Part shown: piece by piece, positions 1 to 57,528 of the stretch
Position numbering within the stretch: the first letter of the stretch is position 1
Layout of the letters: the number at the start of each line of letters is the position of its first letter
Source of the DNA: Pseudomonas phage PhiPA3
Strand: one strand, 5' to 3'
Sequence record: HQ630627.1
DNA: 64,000 nucleotides
Program-made: the position numbers and the translations under genes
The notes under the pieces: generated by a model
Databases searched by the model: none
What the model saw: only the letters and a program-made list of their open reading frames with translations
Told to the model about the DNA's origin: nothing

Positions 1-20
1 GGATGTAAGCGGTATAAAGC

Positions 21-58
21 GGGAGCCTTCGGGCTCCCTGCTTTTCCTTTTCTTTTTT
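21..58 (+). terminator. rho-independent terminator (GGGAGCC-UUCG-GGCUCCC plus T-run)
   Basis: perfect 7-bp GC stem with UUCG tetraloop followed by tgcttttccttttcttttttg. Confidence 0.7.
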
Positions 59-80
59 GCCATTAAATTTTATTTCAAAT

Positions 81-89
81 CTATATTAC
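81..89 (+). promoter_or_regulatory. promoter-like element, core CTATATTAC (class A: AT-rich upstream, ACgtctttgct downstream)
   Basis: one of 8 copies of a conserved 9-mer, located after a terminator and ~40 nt upstream of ATG 128. Confidence 0.5.
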
Positions 90-127
90 GTCTTTGCTGA
101 ACCAACACTCAATCATTAGGGGTAATC

Positions 128-916
128 ATGATCACGCTTAAAAAGTCGCTGACCCAGTGCACGCTGGATAGCTGGTATACCTTCATGGCTGAGAACAGCC
201 TGTCTCGTTTTGATTGTCTGATTGATATTGGCTATCTGGATGAACCACTGCGTAAGATTCTGGAGAAGCACCCGATGTACCGTGGGGATGGTACCATTCT
301 CCTGAACCTGTCTGTGAATGCCTGTAAGCACATTAACTACAGAGGCGATGCATTTACCGGTGAGATCGGTCTTCAGGGTCGTCCGACTTCCCTGTATATC
401 CCGTACCATGCGTTCGTTTCATTGCAGATTCCGCTGTCGGAAACGGCTACAGTAGAAGCCAGTTTCCCGATCTACGACCGACTGGTATTCGATGCTCAGA
501 ACCCCACCTTCGTACACCCGTACGCTGAAGCTGGGCAACAATCGCTCCTCACTATTGCTCCTGAAGCTGTAGTGAAGTGGATGCACAATGAAGGCCACAC
601 TGAGTGTAATGTCCACAACGTCGGTGAGTTCATTAAGTACGTATGGCCTAATGGTGTACCGATGGAAGTCCAAGAATATTTGGTCGAAGAAACCGCCAAT
701 ATGCTCCGCGACCATCAAATGGCTGTACTGCAAAAGCAGTCTGCACAAGCTCCGGTTCCTTCGAATGACGATCGTATCCCGTTTGAAGAAGCTGAAATCA
801 AACCCCTGCTGGAATTCCCTGATCTCTCGGCCAATAAAGTTGTTCTGCAACAGCCGGTGGCGTCGAAGTTCAAAGGCAAGCCAACCCTGACTCTGATTAA
901 AGGAGGTAAGAAGTGA
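128..916 (+). CDS. SspB-like ClpXP adaptor protein (substrate-binding domain, acidic linker, C-terminal ClpX-binding-like tail KPTLTLIKGGKK)
   Basis: 262-aa ORF. N-terminal ~110 aa match SspB hallmark motifs by eye (WYtFmaENsLsRFdcLIDI ; RGDGtIlLNlSvnAckhInY ; FtGeiGLqGRPtSLyIPyhAfvSLqI). The C-terminus resembles the SspB RPALRVVK tail. Confidence 0.55.
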   Translation: MITLKKSLTQCTLDSWYTFMAENSLSRFDCLIDIGYLDEPLRKILEKHPMYRGDGTILLNLSVNACKHINYRGDAFTGEIGLQGRPTSLYIPYHAFVSLQIPLSETATVEASFPIYDRLVFDAQNPTFVHPYAEAGQQSLLTIAPEAVVKWMHNEGHTECNVHNVGEFIKYVWPNGVPMEVQEYLVEETANMLRDHQMAVLQKQSAQAPVPSNDDRIPFEEAEIKPLLEFPDLSANKVVLQQPVASKFKGKPTLTLIKGGKK

Positions 917-1182
917 GTGCTTCTGTCGTTGTAGGTCTTCCGACTGTTCTGCTTAGTACCATTCTCACTGCTGGGGTACAAGGTCCTGCGGGTAATAGTC
1001 AACTGGCCCAGGACTTCGAGTCTAAGGAAGCTTGCTGGCAAGCAATAGGTGCAATTCAACAAGCAACAGGTACCAATGGCGTAAAAGTACACCAGATCGA
1101 ACAAGGTGTTGTCCTTGAATATAGTTTTGAGGGCAAGAACATCCGTCGTGAAATGGTTTGTGTTAGCAAGCACAAACAGTGA
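913..1182 (+). CDS. small protein with N-terminal hydrophobic segment (possible signal peptide)
   Basis: 89-aa ORF; start overlaps previous stop (GTGA context); followed by terminator. Confidence 0.55.
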   Translation: MSASVVVGLPTVLLSTILTAGVQGPAGNSQLAQDFESKEACWQAIGAIQQATGTNGVKVHQIEQGVVLEYSFEGKNIRREMVCVSKHKQ

Positions 1183-1186
1183 ATGA

Positions 1187-1212
1187 GGGGAGTCCTACGG
1201 GACTCCCTTTAT
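1187..1212 (+). terminator. rho-independent terminator (GGGAGUCC-UACG-GGACUCCC plus UUUAUAU)
   Basis: 8-bp stem directly after stop of 913..1182. Confidence 0.7.
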
Positions 1213-1240
1213 ATCCCCTTCTCTTTTAGAGGCTTTAACA

Positions 1241-1993
1241 ATGAACCGACACAATTCCGAGGAAGTTCGCCAACTGATCGCCGATACGGCTGTGCAACTG
1301 GATACGCTGATGGAGAGTAATCACCTCAATGGCATCCGTTTCACTTTCGTGGCACCCAGTGAGGAGACCTTCAACGAACTGTCCAAGATCATTCATGAAG
1401 TTGAAAACCTGGGTCACACCATGCGTGTGCTGCGTGGGTCTCTCCATGACTTCAAAGAAATCATGGACGCTCAAGACTTTATCGTCACCGCTGGTAACAG
1501 TTACGGACACATGACTGGTGGTCTGGATGGTGCTCTGGCTGATATCTATCCTGATCTGATCAAACGCGTTCCATCTACCATTGCTCTTAAGTGTCATGGC
1601 GAGCTCAATGTGGGTGATGGTGTACTGGTGCATCGACATATCCAAGAACCCATCTACGAGAAGATCGTGTACAAGGATCAATACCTGGTTTACGTGCCGA
1701 CCATGCGTACTCCACGTCGGTTGGCAAAAGGTAGTGATGTACCTTATCTGGCTACCCACAAGGCCCTGAGTCTGATTCGCCAAGGCCTGATCCAACATCC
1801 TACCTTCCGTAATGTGTTCATGACCCTCATGGGTACTGGCACTGGTAACATTCCCGTGAAGGTAGCAGTCGAGCAATTCCTGCTGGCTCTTCGGAAAGCT
1901 ACTCGGATTGTCAATGTTAAGAAGCTGTTCGATGATGGTAAAGACGTCGACCATGAACTGGTTAACATTTGGAAAAGGTATGGCAATGAGTAA
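1241..1993 (+). CDS. macro-domain (ADP-ribose binding/hydrolase-like) protein
   Basis: 250-aa ORF containing FIVTAGNSYGHMTGGLDGALA, which matches the macro-domain signature (vNAAN..L.GGGGVDGAIh) by eye. Confidence 0.75.
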   Translation: MNRHNSEEVRQLIADTAVQLDTLMESNHLNGIRFTFVAPSEETFNELSKIIHEVENLGHTMRVLRGSLHDFKEIMDAQDFIVTAGNSYGHMTGGLDGALADIYPDLIKRVPSTIALKCHGELNVGDGVLVHRHIQEPIYEKIVYKDQYLVYVPTMRTPRRLAKGSDVPYLATHKALSLIRQGLIQHPTFRNVFMTLMGTGTGNIPVKVAVEQFLLALRKATRIVNVKKLFDDGKDVDHELVNIWKRYGNE

Positions 1994-2381
1994 GGACAAC
2001 GTGGGGTTAACGGTCGCACAGCGCAAGATTTACTTGGATGCGCTGGATCCAGTTATTCAAAAGATCGCATATGTCATCGATAAGGATCACAAAGGTTACG
2101 AGCCTGAAGTGCAGGTGAACTTAGCTAATCGCAGCTATGACATTATCTGCACGGAGTTCATGAAGTTCAATATGCAGCGTCGAGATGACAGTCCGCAATG
2201 GCAGTCGTTCTTCGACCAGCTCAAAGTGCCTCGTGAACTTCCCCCACGTGAGTCTGAGCAAACTGAGTACGAATGGCTGTCGATGGCTGCCCGTTCTCAG
2301 AAAGCCAAAGAGATGCAAGCAGCAATGAAGTTAGACTCTGTTGACAGAGACTACGTCAATACTTGGACGGGAAAAGTATGA
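1980..2381 (+). CDS. hypothetical protein
   Basis: ORF in track 1908..2381; first ATG downstream of the upstream stop region is at 1980 (MAMSKDNV...), overlapping the macro gene stop. Confidence 0.55.
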   Translation: MAMSKDNVGLTVAQRKIYLDALDPVIQKIAYVIDKDHKGYEPEVQVNLANRSYDIICTEFMKFNMQRRDDSPQWQSFFDQLKVPRELPPRESEQTEYEWLSMAARSQKAKEMQAAMKLDSVDRDYVNTWTGKV

Positions 2382-2629
2382 GCGAAGAAGATTACGTCGC
2401 ATCTCAAATTCAACATGGTATTTGTCAGGAATTCCGTAAGGCTTACAAAGCAAAGATTGCTGTCTACAACTGCGAAGACATGCGAGTCAGCTTGGTCTAC
2501 GAAGATGGCCGTGTTGAACACTACCAACTCCAACACCCGACCGTCGTTTGCGATCCCGATGCTAGTCGTATCGTAGATGTCACCTACGACTTCTCCATGA
2601 TTGTCGGCAACAAACCAACTCTCCACTAA
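2378..2629 (+). CDS. hypothetical protein
   Basis: ORF 2363..2629; ATGA overlap start at 2378 (MSEEDYV...). Confidence 0.55.
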   Translation: MSEEDYVASQIQHGICQEFRKAYKAKIAVYNCEDMRVSLVYEDGRVEHYQLQHPTVVCDPDASRIVDVTYDFSMIVGNKPTLH

Positions 2630-2638
2630 GGAAATACA

Positions 2639-4069
2639 ATGCACGCTTATCTCCAGCTGTTGGAAGACATCAAGAAATACGGTGTCTTCAAAGGAGATCG
2701 AACCGGGACTGGTACTCAGTCCCTTTTCGGTCGTCAGTTCCGTTTTGATCTGAAAGACAACAACCTGCCGGTTGTGACCACCAAGTTCGTTCATACCCCG
2801 TCGGTTGAAGTCGAACACGTCTGGATGAAGAACGGTCTCACTAACCTGAAGTTCCTGCTCGATCACAACGTGCGGATCTGGAACGAATGGTGCAAGCCGG
2901 GTACTGAAGTGCGCGTACCGGTGGACGAAGGTGAGCTGGTTGATCTGGTTCAACGCAAGTTCAAGTACGTTGACTTCGAAATGCACCACAGCAATGAAAT
3001 CGAAGAAGACTACAAGTTCATCCTAGATGGTGCTCGTACCAACGGCGAGAAAGGTGCGGTACTGCTGATGAGTGGTAAAGCCTGGATGGATGTCGAGCGT
3101 TTCGGCCCAGGCCCCACTACTTACGACTTCTATGGTCATGCTCGTCGAGTCTGGCAAATCGTCTGCGGAGAAACTACTACCCTTAAAGTAGGGGAAGACG
3201 GCTTTGTTTACCGTCTCGTAGATGGTGATCTGGGTCCGGTGTATGGTAAGACCTGGCGTAATATCGAGGACACTCGGATCATCAAGAAGGCTGAACTCCA
3301 GAACTTCTTGGATCGTAAGTTCACATTCGTGGTGGATGTACCGGGTACATCTCTGGAAACCGATCGAGCTGTAGTTACCCGTAATATCGATCAACTGGCT
3401 GAACTGCTCCATGACCTGGAACACAATCCGGATTCGCGGCGTCTGATCATCTGTGCCTGGGACCCGGCTCTGGTTGATGAACAGGCATTGCCTCCGTGCC
3501 ACGCATTTATTCAGTTCTGGACTCGTAAGCTGGAACTGTCCGAACGTCTGAGTCTGTGGGTTTCCAATAATGCCAATGAATTCATCAAGCATCTGTTGGA
3601 TTATAAGGGGGATTGGCCGACTCAAAACGTTATTGACATCGTCAACACTGGCGAATACCAACAAGTCATTACTCAGGTAGCCGAAAGTGATTGGCTGAAG
3701 TTTGTAGAAGCATCGGGTATTGATCTGACTGGTATTCCTGAACGAGGCATTAGTTGCCAACTCTACCAGCGATCAGTTGACGCATTCCTTGGTTTGCCCT
3801 TTAACATCACCTTCTACTCGATCATGACTCATGCACTGGCCAACCAGTTCAACATGGTTGCAGAAGAGTTCATCTGGACTGGGGGTGATTGCCACATTTA
3901 TTCCAACCACCAAGAACAGACTGATCTACAACTGACTCGGAATACGTTCCCGACTCCGAAGATTCATTTCCGTGAGAAAGGTAAACCGTATCTGGAACTG
4001 GACGTAGGTGATTTCGTGATCGAAGGTTATGAGTATCACCCACACATTGCTGGCAAGGTAGCCGTCTAA
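2639..4069 (+). CDS. thyA: thymidylate synthase family (ThyA-like, dUMP-specific Asn retained) with three large insertions
   Basis: 476 aa. Contains ThyA motifs YLQLLEDI..G..KGDRTGTGTQSLFG.QFRFDL, VVTTKF, IWNEW, DLGPVYGKTWR, NPDSRRLIICAWDP, PPCHAFIQFW, SCQLYQRSVDAFLGLPFNI, WTGGDCHIYSNH. Inserts of ~110, ~30 and ~60 aa versus E. coli ThyA (264 aa). RBS aaggaaatacaATG. Confidence 0.85.
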   Translation: MHAYLQLLEDIKKYGVFKGDRTGTGTQSLFGRQFRFDLKDNNLPVVTTKFVHTPSVEVEHVWMKNGLTNLKFLLDHNVRIWNEWCKPGTEVRVPVDEGELVDLVQRKFKYVDFEMHHSNEIEEDYKFILDGARTNGEKGAVLLMSGKAWMDVERFGPGPTTYDFYGHARRVWQIVCGETTTLKVGEDGFVYRLVDGDLGPVYGKTWRNIEDTRIIKKAELQNFLDRKFTFVVDVPGTSLETDRAVVTRNIDQLAELLHDLEHNPDSRRLIICAWDPALVDEQALPPCHAFIQFWTRKLELSERLSLWVSNNANEFIKHLLDYKGDWPTQNVIDIVNTGEYQQVITQVAESDWLKFVEASGIDLTGIPERGISCQLYQRSVDAFLGLPFNITFYSIMTHALANQFNMVAEEFIWTGGDCHIYSNHQEQTDLQLTRNTFPTPKIHFREKGKPYLELDVGDFVIEGYEYHPHIAGKVAV

Positions 4070-4329
4070 TGGAAAAGACCACGTTATCGTTGGAAGAACG
4101 TTGTACCTATGGAGCTCGTCAATCGATCCGTAAGGAAAGTGAGGCATCCAATGGGTATTTTGTTTGCAACAGTTTCACAATCGGTAACGTGGCTTCTCTC
4201 AAGATCTGGCAGAAGCCCAATGTCACCGATGAAGAACTACACGTCAAGTTAGATCAGATGGGTTATCCGAAATATCTGGAAGACGTGGATCCTGTTGACC
4301 TTGTTAAACAAGAAGATACCAATGTATAA
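4069..4329 (+). CDS. hypothetical protein
   Basis: 86-aa ORF, ATG overlaps thyA stop (TAATGG). Confidence 0.55.
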   Translation: MEKTTLSLEERCTYGARQSIRKESEASNGYFVCNSFTIGNVASLKIWQKPNVTDEELHVKLDQMGYPKYLEDVDPVDLVKQEDTNV

Positions 4330-7818: not shown

Positions 7819-8161
7819 GCTCAAGTTCTATGACATGCTCTTCCAGAACATCGTTCAGTTCCATCTGGAGGAGGGGAGTAGCTTCAAGGACTTCGAGGTT
7901 GAAAGTACCCTTGGACATAAACTCCTCTTCCGCCGTATTCGAAATGATGGCGTGGATAAGATGTCATGGGAAATCAGGATCTCTCATGAAACTGTAGAAA
8001 TTACAGCCGATCTCAACGTCCCTGGTTACGATATCAAGATCAATAAGATCCTTGACTATGAATGGAAAGAGGTTAGTTTGGATGATCCGCGTGCGGTATT
8101 CATCGCCAGTCGGTGTTGTGCGGTTTTCGTTCGATTAATGGAGGACCAGTGGTATGTCTAG
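7806..8161 (+). CDS. hypothetical protein
   Basis: track 7790..8161; ATG 7806 (MHYKLKFYDM) after a gggggacgg RBS-like run. Confidence 0.55.
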
Positions 8162-8621
8162 AAAGGTCAAGTTCTATTCGCGCTTGGCTGCAATGGCTGT
8201 GACACAACCACATTACGTGATCTCCATTGGGGAAGCAAATGACGGCTGTGTATTGGACCCCGAACACAAATCGGTACTGCGTCTGGAGTTCGACGATATC
8301 CCTTATCACGTCGATGGGTATCGTCTGTTCTCGTTGACTGACGCAAGACGAATTTTAAGGTGGCTACGAGACGTTCCTGAGAACGAAACCGTTATAGTCC
8401 ACTGTGAGGCAGGGGTCAGCCGATCGGCTGCTGTAGCGCAATTCATGGTCGATCACCAGGGGTATGAACTGGAGAAAGATCAGTACTGTAATGGGAGCTT
8501 CCTGTGTGCCAATGGCCATGTTTACGGCACACTAAGAATGACTGCGTTGGAAATTACTGACCAGTACCTTCTTATGGAAGCTGAATATGATCGCAAAGTA
8601 AAGGGTATTCCCCAATGGTAG
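8154..8621 (+). CDS. Cys-based protein phosphatase fold (dual-specificity/PTP-like; could act on protein or nucleic-acid substrates)
   Basis: 155 aa; catalytic signature VIVHCEAGVSRSAAV = HCxAGxxR(S/T) P-loop; upstream Asp-containing region. Confidence 0.7.
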   Translation: MSRKVKFYSRLAAMAVTQPHYVISIGEANDGCVLDPEHKSVLRLEFDDIPYHVDGYRLFSLTDARRILRWLRDVPENETVIVHCEAGVSRSAAVAQFMVDHQGYELEKDQYCNGSFLCANGHVYGTLRMTALEITDQYLLMEAEYDRKVKGIPQW

Positions 8622-9228: not shown

Positions 9229-10620
9229 ATGGAAAACGTACTGGCCGAACTGAAACCCATTAAGGAAGGTTTCGGTGTCGTTGAAGAGACTCGCAAACTA
9301 GCGCGTATCGTCGAGATCGATGACGTAATCAAACACCCCAATGCCGATGCACTTGAACTGGCCATCGTTGGTGGTTGGCAACTGTGTGTGAAACTCGGTG
9401 AATACAAGAAGGGTGATCGCGCGATTTATTGCGAGATTGATTCTCTCCTGCCCCTGTCCAATATCGAACTCTTCGGTTTCCTCGAAGCGCGTCGTTCGGA
9501 CAACCGTCGTGTTAACGGCGTGAACTACCACCGGCTGAAGACCATCAAACTGCGTAAGGAACTTTCGCAGGGTCTGCTGGTGCCGGTACCGGCTGAATTC
9601 AAAGATGAACCAGTTGATACCAACCTGACCCTGAAGCTGGGTATTCTGAAATATGAATCCGCTCCGCAGATGGAACCCAAGGCTCGTATCGGTCGTGACG
9701 CCCCGTTCTTCGTGAAACTGGGCGCTCGGCTGATCGGTGATCTGGGCGGTGCTCTGCTCCCGTGGCCGAGCATGCTGACTAAGTCGGACCAAGATCGCAT
9801 TCAGAACAAAGGCGTAGCTTTCCATACTGTCAAGGAACAAGGTGACGACATGGAAGTCACCTACAAACTCGACGGTAGCTCGATGACCGTGTTCTGTGTG
9901 AATGACAAGGTTGTCCGCACTGGCGTCTGTTCGCGTAACTACGAACTGGGTACCAGTGAAGCCAACTGGACCTTCACTGAACAAGTACGTTACTGGCTGG
10001 GGAACTTCCTGATCCGTAACCGTAACGTGTTCAAGCTGAGGACCTGGTTCCGTCGTGAAGACGGCGTCCTGGAAGGTCCGCGTAAACCACGTTGGGGTCT
10101 GATCATTCCGGAATGGGTGAAGCGTGTCGATACCTCCGACAACAACTTCATCCGCGTTACTCGTGAACTTAAGATCCGCGAGAAGCTGGTGGACTACCTC
10201 CAGGCTACTGGTCGCTTCATTACTGTTCAAGGTGAACTGATTGGTCCGGATATCCAGGACAACTTTGAAGGTGTGGACAAGCCCGAATACTACGTGTACT
10301 CGGTGTACGAAGATGGTAACATCGTACTGCTCCCGAAAGAAGCACGTAAAATCGTAGCTGAACTCGGTCTGAACTACGTACCGCTGTTTGATCCCGAGTG
10401 GAAACCTACCGCTGAAACCACCGGCAAAGATGTTCTGGCGATGGCTGAAGGTCCGTCTGCGTTCAAGAACAAACGGGGCTACCGGGAAGGTCTGGTGTTC
10501 AAGTCCAATCAACGAGTACTGTCTTGGAAGGCAATCTCGAATCGCTACCTTCTGAAGCAAGAAGAAGAGCTGGAAAAGAAAGCCAAAGCCGAAGAAGCAG
10601 CTGAAGCTGTAGTAGCCTAA
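9229..10620 (+). CDS. ATP-dependent RNA ligase (nucleotidyltransferase KxDG superfamily) with N-terminal tRNA-binding-like OB (Myf/EMAP-type) domain
   Basis: 463 aa. The N-terminal VIKHPNADALELAIVGGWQLCVKLGEYKKGDRAIYCEIDSLLP resembles tRNA-binding OB domains. Motif I TYKLDGSS (KxDG), a YEDGNIVL-like motif III/IIIa region and motif IV REGLVFKS (EGxVxK) are present. RBS aaggaaaatacATG. Confidence 0.75.
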   Translation: MENVLAELKPIKEGFGVVEETRKLARIVEIDDVIKHPNADALELAIVGGWQLCVKLGEYKKGDRAIYCEIDSLLPLSNIELFGFLEARRSDNRRVNGVNYHRLKTIKLRKELSQGLLVPVPAEFKDEPVDTNLTLKLGILKYESAPQMEPKARIGRDAPFFVKLGARLIGDLGGALLPWPSMLTKSDQDRIQNKGVAFHTVKEQGDDMEVTYKLDGSSMTVFCVNDKVVRTGVCSRNYELGTSEANWTFTEQVRYWLGNFLIRNRNVFKLRTWFRREDGVLEGPRKPRWGLIIPEWVKRVDTSDNNFIRVTRELKIREKLVDYLQATGRFITVQGELIGPDIQDNFEGVDKPEYYVYSVYEDGNIVLLPKEARKIVAELGLNYVPLFDPEWKPTAETTGKDVLAMAEGPSAFKNKRGYREGLVFKSNQRVLSWKAISNRYLLKQEEELEKKAKAEEAAEAVVA

Positions 10621-57300: not shown

Positions 57301-57528
57301 TTACACCGTATTGAGTAGAGCTTCGACACGTTGCGTCCCCTGGCAAACCAGAACTGGTACTTCGATACCTTTCTCCTCGCAGTATTTTACGAGATCTTCA
57401 TGTGCCTTTCGCCACTGCTCCAGCAGCTGCCGATTCCGAATGCGATTAGCTTCCTTTTCTTCGGGAGTCAGTTCTGTTATATTACGAACACTGAGCTTGG
57501 GGATGGGATGGTATTCAGCAGATTTCAT
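57301..57528 (-). CDS. hypothetical small protein
   Basis: 75-aa ORF with RBS ggagatccaatATG on the minus strand. Confidence 0.55.
   Translation of the reverse strand: MKSAEYHPIPKLSVRNITELTPEEKEANRIRNRQLLEQWRKAHEDLVKYCEEKGIEVPVLVCQGTQRVEALLNTV

Follow-up and report, generated by a model that had tools for sequence, protein, structure and literature searches.

Bacterial SspB is defined by a native domain, a disordered region and a short ClpX-binding (XB) segment (PMC9963277). A phage-encoded homologue, gp18 of the Pseudomonas putida phage pf16, was proposed in silico in 2017 to interfere with host SspB (PMC5587285). A second one, gp039 of Erwinia phage RAY, has been described, putatively, as an SspB-like adaptor for ClpXP (PMC10299810). 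Here we analyzed a 64,000-nucleotide stretch (hereafter the window; record HQ630627.1) of the genome of PhiPA3, a Pseudomonas nucleus-forming jumbo phage of ~309 kb, and focused on the SspB-like gene gp268 near its beginning. Its architecture, with a putative ClpX-binding segment, agrees with the definition of SspB given above. Both RAY and PhiPA3 are chimalliviruses, and the orthologue table and Fig. S4J of PMC10299810 put RAY gp039 in the same orthogroup. As far as the descriptions can be compared, gp268 differs from pf16 gp18, which comes from a T4-like phage, is highly similar to host SspB and has a deletion in the acidic linker (PMC5587285), whereas gp268 is highly diverged.

The open reading frame (ORF) was first noted in a preliminary description of this DNA, made from the sequence without database searches. 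It was borne out as a frame of 262 codons with an ATG start and an AGGGG ribosome-binding site, and a protein search found its product 100% identical to AVT69_gp268, also listed as 'Uncharacterized protein 270'. The RefSeq "hypothetical protein" gp268 thus corresponds to gp270 of the earlier gene numbers. In Fig. S4J of their paper, Prichard et al. (2023, Cell Rep; PMC10299810) aligned PhiPA3 gp270 as an SspB homologue together with PhiKZ_gp232 and 201phi2-1_gp347; they also listed AVT69_gp268 in their orthologue table, classed the SspB-like gene as an accessory (non-core) chimallivirus gene, and observed that RAY gp039-GFP spread diffusely through the cytoplasm and stayed out of the phage nucleus. 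The SspB assignment of gp268/gp270 is therefore already known from published in silico work, yet the RefSeq entry of PhiPA3 gp268 has not been updated. In the searchable part of that text, no discussion was found of four features reported below: the low residue retention, KPLLDFG, the GGK tail and the small ORF coupled to the gene.

Homology and fold of the N-terminal domain

As a single sequence, gp268 gave only sub-threshold matches in Pfam, PHROG and the PDB, yet all of them pointed toward SspB. PHROG 8945 ("SspB-like") was matched at E=0.014, and the six weak matches in the PDB sequence search were all SspB chains, the best being 1ou9 (E=0.017), where residues 13-127 of gp268 aligned with chain residues 13-122. 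A family profile, built from an alignment of 13 phage relatives, matched H. influenzae and E. coli SspB in the PDB with E=7e-14 to 5e-12. Individually, 11 of the 13 members matched PF04386 (best E=6.5e-8). When the phage family was aligned by hhalign with eight Pseudomonas SspB sequences, a probability of 98.9% (E=1.8e-17) was obtained over 85 columns, with an identity of ~24% in the aligned region; these columns put PhiPA3 F76 opposite Pseudomonas SspB V65. The search for the SspB family that the preliminary description had suggested, of Pfam or HHpred type, was therefore strongly positive at the profile level.

We modeled the structure with AlphaFold2 from the family alignment. Residues 1-130 were predicted with a pLDDT (predicted local distance difference test) of ~90, including an N-terminal helix at residues 8-22. 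In a Foldseek comparison of this model with the PDB, ranks 1-19 were all SspB (best E=8e-7), and rank 20 had a probability of 0.05. The target-normalised TM (template modelling) score to the gamma-proteobacterial SspB structures was 0.69-0.80. SspB proteins of alpha-proteobacteria (C. crescentus 2QAS/2QAZ; A. tumefaciens 2NYS) belong to the same fold family, with a Foldseek probability of 1.00, but the match was weaker than that to the gamma-proteobacterial proteins (TM 0.53-0.59, E ~3e-3 to 2e-2), and the family sequence profile barely detected them (E ~0.4). The fold of the substrate-binding domain and the homology are thus common to gp268 and bacterial SspB (1OX9, 1OU8 and 8ET3 of E. coli and H. 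influenzae; Pseudomonas SspB). The comparison of an AlphaFold model with SspB, which the preliminary description had also suggested, therefore came out in its favour.

These results leave hardly any doubt that gp268 is a diverged SspB homologue with the SspB fold, and for the N-terminal domain both homology and fold are settled. The SspB motifs claimed earlier for this domain were recovered in part: the DGxI(V/L)LN...A strand, G84 and P92 are there, while RPYLLRA, TPH, RF and IYARENG are not.

Tether and C-terminal tail

Bacterial SspB and gp268 have the same layout, in which a folded domain is followed by a flexible region and a short C-terminal motif, G[KR]P-x-L-x-phi-phi-K. Compared with bacterial SspB, gp268 has a longer, less acidic and partly helical tether with an extra KPLLEFP motif. 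The tether spans ~120 aa, against roughly 25-45 aa in bacterial SspB, and residues 126-245 contain 14% D+E with a net charge of -10, whereas about half of the residues in Pseudomonas SspB linkers are acidic by a hand count from the retrieved sequences. What had been called a long acidic linker is therefore long, but only mildly acidic and partly helical. Residues 145-206 were predicted to be helical with low confidence (pLDDT 53-69), and residues 208-262 to be disordered (pLDDT <55). In the tether of some family members there is a small helical module, such as SAYDLARAKGFTGTEEDFLSAAL of P0008, for which no Pfam match was obtained and which we take to resemble a module common in phage tail-fibre proteins; the corresponding region is ~560-640 of the window (aa ~145-172), and the middle regions of P0006, P0008 and BRkr belong here as well.

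Outside the N-terminal domain, only the KPLLDFG motif and the C-terminus are conserved across the 13-member alignment. Most Pseudomonas-phage members of the family share KPLL[DE]F[GP] ~25 aa upstream of the tail; it is absent from RAY gp039, the phiKZ-like proteins and Moabite, and the 201phi2-1 protein has VFFPDLD at a similar distance.

At the C-terminus, the family consensus is ...SRYKGKPxLTxIxGGKx, with P252 invariant and L254, G259 and G260 at least 90% conserved. The tails read GKPTLTLIK-GGKK in PhiPA3, GKPKLTVIK-GGKK in BRkr, GPPKLTVIK-GGKK in Churi gp079 (phiKZ-like; orthologue of phiKZ gp232), PPHLRVIQ-GGKA in D6, GPNLTLIQ-GGKK in Psa21, NPFSVIK-GGKE in Serratia phage Moabite and EWLQVHE-GGLK in 201phi2-1 gp347. 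This tail core is conserved among phage orthologues of only 22-43% identity. Like gp268, phiKZ gp232 (read as Churi gp079), 201phi2-1 gp347 and Moabite gp216 join an SspB-like N-terminal domain to a ...phi-I-x-GGK-x C-terminus, although their middle regions are wholly different from that of gp268 and the total lengths range from 161 to 373 aa.

In bacteria, all eight retrieved Pseudomonas SspB proteins end in ...GRPSLKVVK (none is confirmed as P. aeruginosa), and E. coli SspB ends in ...GRPALRVVK, in whose XB segment Leu161 and Val164 are the critical residues. PhiPA3 does not match the strict bacterial form G[RK]P-x-L-[RK]-V-V-K, as LI replaces VV; moreover, Thr stands in place of Arg/Lys and GGKK is added. 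Two other members of the homologous group end canonically, namely RAY gp039 with KKPTLTVVK and the metagenomic P0012 with KPPFLKIVK, which links the extended GGK tails to true XB-style termini. The cores of RAY gp039 (KPTLTVVK) and PhiPA3 (KPTLTLIK) are nearly identical. Unlike gp268, RAY gp039 is compact (150 aa), has a short acidic linker and ends exactly in ...VVK like bacterial SspB.

The resemblance of the PhiPA3 tail, KPTLTLIKGGKK, to RPALRVVK had been pointed out before and held up, as the core is non-random and conserved in the family: when the sequence was shuffled 200,000 times with its composition preserved, P-x-L-x-[VLI]-[VI]-K arose within the final 20 residues only 32 times (1.6e-4). 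No other ORF of the window contains the tail motif, and the idea that the tail is a tag common to several phage proteins was rejected, since within the window it is unique to the gp268 ORF. When the last 70 aa of gp268 were searched against PDB sequences, nothing matched.

Occurrence and transcription unit

When 1.84 billion representative proteins were searched exhaustively with HMMER, only 12 clusters were returned. In a word-index protein search, gp268 alone recovered only itself and the 13-sequence profile only four proteins, and megablast of nucleotides 1-4200 against the phage collection gave only a short match, inside thyA, PhiPA3 itself being absent from the hits. With gp268 as the tblastn query, orthologues came up in nine jumbo phages of Pseudomonas related to PhiPA3, and a family member found 68 phage records, all of them jumbo phages of ~266-309 kb, including phiKZ-like, PA1C-like, Psa21, D6, RVTF4 and Serratia Moabite-like phages. 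P0012 as a second probe weakly matched Phabio (E=3e-3), and RAY gp039 was not reached when gp268 served as tblastn query with a limit of E<=1. The annotation "stringent starvation protein B" is carried by several of the 68 records and also by 201phi2-1 and the RAY group of Erwinia phages. With a closer subset of the family as query, one further jumbo-phage contig was found in IMG/VR, and among 185,579 bacterial and archaeal species (one genome each) no confirmed relative with the extended-tail signature was detected.

Upstream of gp268, a terminator-like hairpin is followed by an element resembling the early promoters of phiKZ type, whose core, TATATTAC, sits 38 nt before the ATG. The core occurs seven times in the window, always on the plus strand, compared with 1.36 expected copies, and none of 100 shuffles reached seven. 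At six of the seven sites, including that at 82, an AT-rich TTAAA...TTTCAA-like element lies upstream, and the site is 30-50 nt before a start codon; the site at 57478 is without this shared context. The same core has been tabulated as a predicted promoter of phiKZ and 201phi2-1 (PMC7058600), and such predicted motifs proved to be early promoters of the virion RNA polymerase (vRNAP) in every jumbo phage profiled (PMC7598289). Because the motif is of this type, gp268 is likely to be expressed early in PhiPA3 infection.

The GTG start of a small ORF at 913 overlaps the TGA stop of gp268 at 914-916 (GTGA), and the ORF is preceded by its own AGGAGG within the end of the gp268 gene. Its product is 50-51% identical to those of ORFs overlapping the BRkr and HPP-Temi orthologues and 33% identical to Churi gp078 (E=3e-10), and it matches PHROG 32080 (function unassigned) at E=3.5e-5. 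This gene pair, a gp268-type gene and the overlapping small ORF, is kept in PA1C-like and phiKZ-like phages, whereas RAY gp039 has no such ORF. The hydrophobic N-terminus lacks basic residues, there are two conserved Cys, and secretion of the product is plausible. A GC-rich hairpin downstream of the small ORF was not called by the strict terminator scan because its T-run is short. The earlier proposal that gp268 opens a promoter-to-terminator unit with a small protein gene was supported: the unit would be bounded by the core at 82-89 and the hairpins at 16-44 and 1183-1212, and the small ORF is real, being conserved in BRkr, HPP-Temi and Churi.

Candidate functions and neighbouring genes

Computation, as far as it goes, supports the earlier suggestion of a ClpXP adaptor, in which binding to ClpX and an effect on proteolysis would follow from the sequence features described above. 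We propose that gp268 would be made early in infection from the vRNAP promoter, would stay in the host cytoplasm, the site of ClpXP, as suggested by the RAY orthologue, and may form a dimer, as its homology implies. A cargo protein would be bound, by a peptide segment, in the SspB-fold domain, and the XB-like PTLTLIK at the end of the long flexible tether would attach to the N-domain (zinc-binding) of the host's ClpX, whereby the cargo would be tethered to ClpXP for degradation. Meanwhile, host SspB and whatever else uses the ClpX N-domain would face competition from gp268. Docking of gp268 on ClpX through the tail appears somewhat probable to us, and we lean to the same degree toward the full adaptor reading that includes it. 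Among the readings considered, delivery of a cargo other than ssrA-tagged protein is the most likely functional outcome.

Several observations weigh against this proposal. Scored as a single sequence, gp268 reached 13.8 bits with PF04386, below the cut-off of 27 (E=0.061), and matched over residues 51-99 only. Neither the helical insert nor KPLLDFG has an equivalent in bacterial SspB. In the tail, the residue after Leu is Thr, not the bacterial Arg/Lys, and GGKK stands between the core and the very end of the protein. PhiPA3 gp268 is identical at 11 of 44 (25%) bacterial-invariant positions, and similar or better at 21 of 44, the invariant set being the columns identical in E. coli and H. influenzae SspB (PDB sequences) and one Pseudomonas SspB. 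Neither ssrA-like degrons (all six reading frames) nor a tmRNA (transfer-messenger RNA) gene was found in the window, and the literature yielded no functional experiment on gp268 or its orthologues beyond the GFP localisation of RAY gp039. The GGKK extension should be no bar to docking, since the ClpX zinc-binding domain binds XB whatever its position in a polypeptide (PMC12373786).

The pattern of retained residues bears on the cargo. Among the positions that gp268 retains are the central DGxI(V/L)LN strand and, numbered as in E. coli, A59, G78 and P86; Asn54 in the same numbering is invariant in every aligned bacterial and phage sequence. The lost elements are RPYLLRA, TPH, R75/F76 and the IYARENG segment. 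By comparison, RAY gp039 keeps 19 of the 44 positions, YARE included. The conserved positions of bacterial SspB make up the ssrA groove and the dimer interface; as most of the invariant residues are replaced, remodelling has probably affected at least one of the two, the groove for the cargo or the surface for dimer formation. For the same reason, ssrA cargo is doubtful, and gp268 probably binds something other than the canonical ssrA tag or binds it in a non-canonical way.

We wondered whether gp268 might nevertheless serve as a canonical ssrA adaptor, binding the host tag (AANDDNY...) and speeding the clearance of tmRNA-tagged fragments by ClpXP, which would recycle amino acids and free ribosomes during infection. 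The SspB fold, the XB-like tail and the retention of the DGxIxLN strand with its invariant Asn, A65, G84 and P92 would fit such a role. With only a quarter of the bacterial-invariant positions kept, the losses of RPYLLRA, R75/F76 and IYARENG falling at positions of groove or dimer-interface type, and a host that already has its own SspB, we regard it as unlikely.

Alternatively, the protein could be a competitive blocker, or anti-adaptor, whose tail, perhaps helped by KPLLDFG, would occupy the ClpX N-domains and exclude host SspB and other N-domain-dependent adaptors or substrates, shielding phage proteins from ClpXP. Outside the N-terminal domain the tail is the most conserved element, with a second motif 25 aa upstream; the groove-type residues have diverged; and binding to the zinc-binding domain alone can alter the substrate choice of ClpXP (PMC7804408). 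A pure blocker, however, would need the tail only, while the SspB-fold domain with its invariant core residues is present in 13 of 13 aligned members and in further orthologues read singly. This retention argues that the N-terminal domain still binds something, and we give the blocker a low probability.

A more elaborate form of the adaptor proposal would see the GGK-tailed proteins from the sampled jumbo phages of Pseudomonas and Serratia as a class of adaptors that is re-engineered and specific to phages. Its remodelled groove would select cargo other than ssrA, such as a host protein involved in defence or stress, or a phage protein that has to be timed in its level; a bipartite tail (KPLLDFG plus P-x-L-x-phi-phi-x-GGK) would out-compete host adaptors for ClpX; and the adaptor would act jointly with the translationally coupled, small envelope-directed protein of the overlapping ORF. 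If true, this would amount to an early-expressed takeover of host ClpXP, but that all three features hold together is distinctly unlikely.

Still another explanation holds that the SspB fold has been repurposed away from ClpXP, that the tail (L-T-x-I-x-G-G-K) and KPLLDFG dock on another partner of phage or host origin, and that the XB resemblance is only an ancestral remnant. Consistent with this, the GGK extension is kept more strictly than the Leu (FSVIKGGKE in Moabite, LQVHEGGLK in 201phi2-1), nothing equivalent to the extended tail signature turned up in the 185,579 bacterial and archaeal species genomes, and RVTF4, Psa21 and D6 each have a BCS1/FtsH-like AAA+ gene one gene downstream. On the other hand, RAY gp039 and P0012, of the same homologous group, have the canonical ends ...LTVVK and ...LKIVK, no AAA+ was found among the PhiPA3 ORFs scanned in the first 10.6 kb downstream, and the downstream gene of RVTF4 is unrelated to that of PhiPA3. 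We consider this explanation very unlikely. Service to a phage AAA+ ATPase was rejected as a conserved linkage, as the scanned PhiPA3 ORFs to ~10.6 kb hold no AAA+ and the gene in between in RVTF4 shows no homology with the Macro-like gene of PhiPA3 (E=0.043).

Should docking of gp268 on ClpX prove true, it would be a rare phage adaptor that redirects a host AAA+ protease instead of simply inhibiting it, acting in the cytoplasm of a cell in which the phage DNA is sealed in a protein "nucleus". The identity of its cargo could reveal which host or phage proteins need early removal in jumbo-phage infection, and tools for targeted degradation in bacteria that are based on XB peptides could profit from the variants of the XB-like tail.

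Table 1. Positions of gp268, its parts and the other features discussed; window coordinates unless a different sequence is named
Feature	Position	Strand	Basis or remark
Terminator-like hairpin ending the preceding unit	16..44	+	terminator scan; RNAfold -20.0 kcal/mol; GC stem 21-38, then TGCTTTTCC
Early (vRNAP) promoter-like element, phiKZ type	62..89	+	AT-rich upstream region plus core TATATTAC at 82-89
TATATTAC sites	82, 14327, 17110, 17964, 24133, 57478, 57591	+	motif count in window
Ribosome-binding site AGGGG for gp268	118..122	+	5 nt upstream of ATG; read from sequence
SspB-like gene gp268	128..916	+	262 aa plus stop; ATG at 128
SspB-fold substrate-binding domain, residues 1-130	128..517	+	AlphaFold2, Foldseek, profile, hhalign; helix 8-22, then beta-sandwich
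Variable, mildly acidic tether, residues 131-249	518..874	+	unalignable across family
Low-confidence helices in tether, residues 145-206	560-745	+	AlphaFold2
KPLLEFPDL, PhiPA3 version of KPLLDFG, residues 225-233	800..826	+	family alignment
Tail GKPTLTLIKGGKK, residues 250-262	875..913	+	XB-like core PTLTLIK plus GGKK extension; family alignment, SspB tails
Ribosome-binding site AGGAGG for small ORF	901..906	+	read from sequence
Small overlapping ORF, putative exported or membrane protein	913..1182	+	89 aa; conserved in related phages
Likely terminator of the two-gene unit	1183..1212	+	13-bp GC-rich hairpin, then TTTATAT; RNAfold -22.8 kcal/mol
Macro-like ORF	1241-1993		250 aa; downstream of gp268; PHROG 2613 (E=2e-58, function unassigned)
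Thymidylate synthase	2639-4069		476 aa; PF00303 in two stretches, E=2.6e-81
Dual-specificity-phosphatase-like ORF	8154-8621		E=3.9e-6, below Pfam cut-off
RNA ligase with PHA02142 OB-fold domain	9229-10620		E=4.6e-24 and 1.1e-16
Five tRNA genes: Ser-tga, Thr-tgt, Tyr-gta, Asn-gtt, Leu-taa	49453-58025	-
BCS1/FtsH-like AAA+ genes in RVTF4, Psa21 and D6	L002 4918-6294; L006 2949 onward; L007 2855 onward

Beyond the two-gene unit, the remaining features of the window are listed in Table 1. In both PhiPA3 and 201phi2-1, thymidylate synthase follows a few genes downstream of the SspB-like gene. The PhiPA3 enzyme has 476 aa against a Pfam model of 266 positions, which it matches in two stretches, implying a large internal insertion. 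The product of 1241-1993 showed weak matches to Macro and Macro_2 (E ~0.02-0.05) and may be a diverged ADP-ribose-binding or ADP-ribose-hydrolysing protein.

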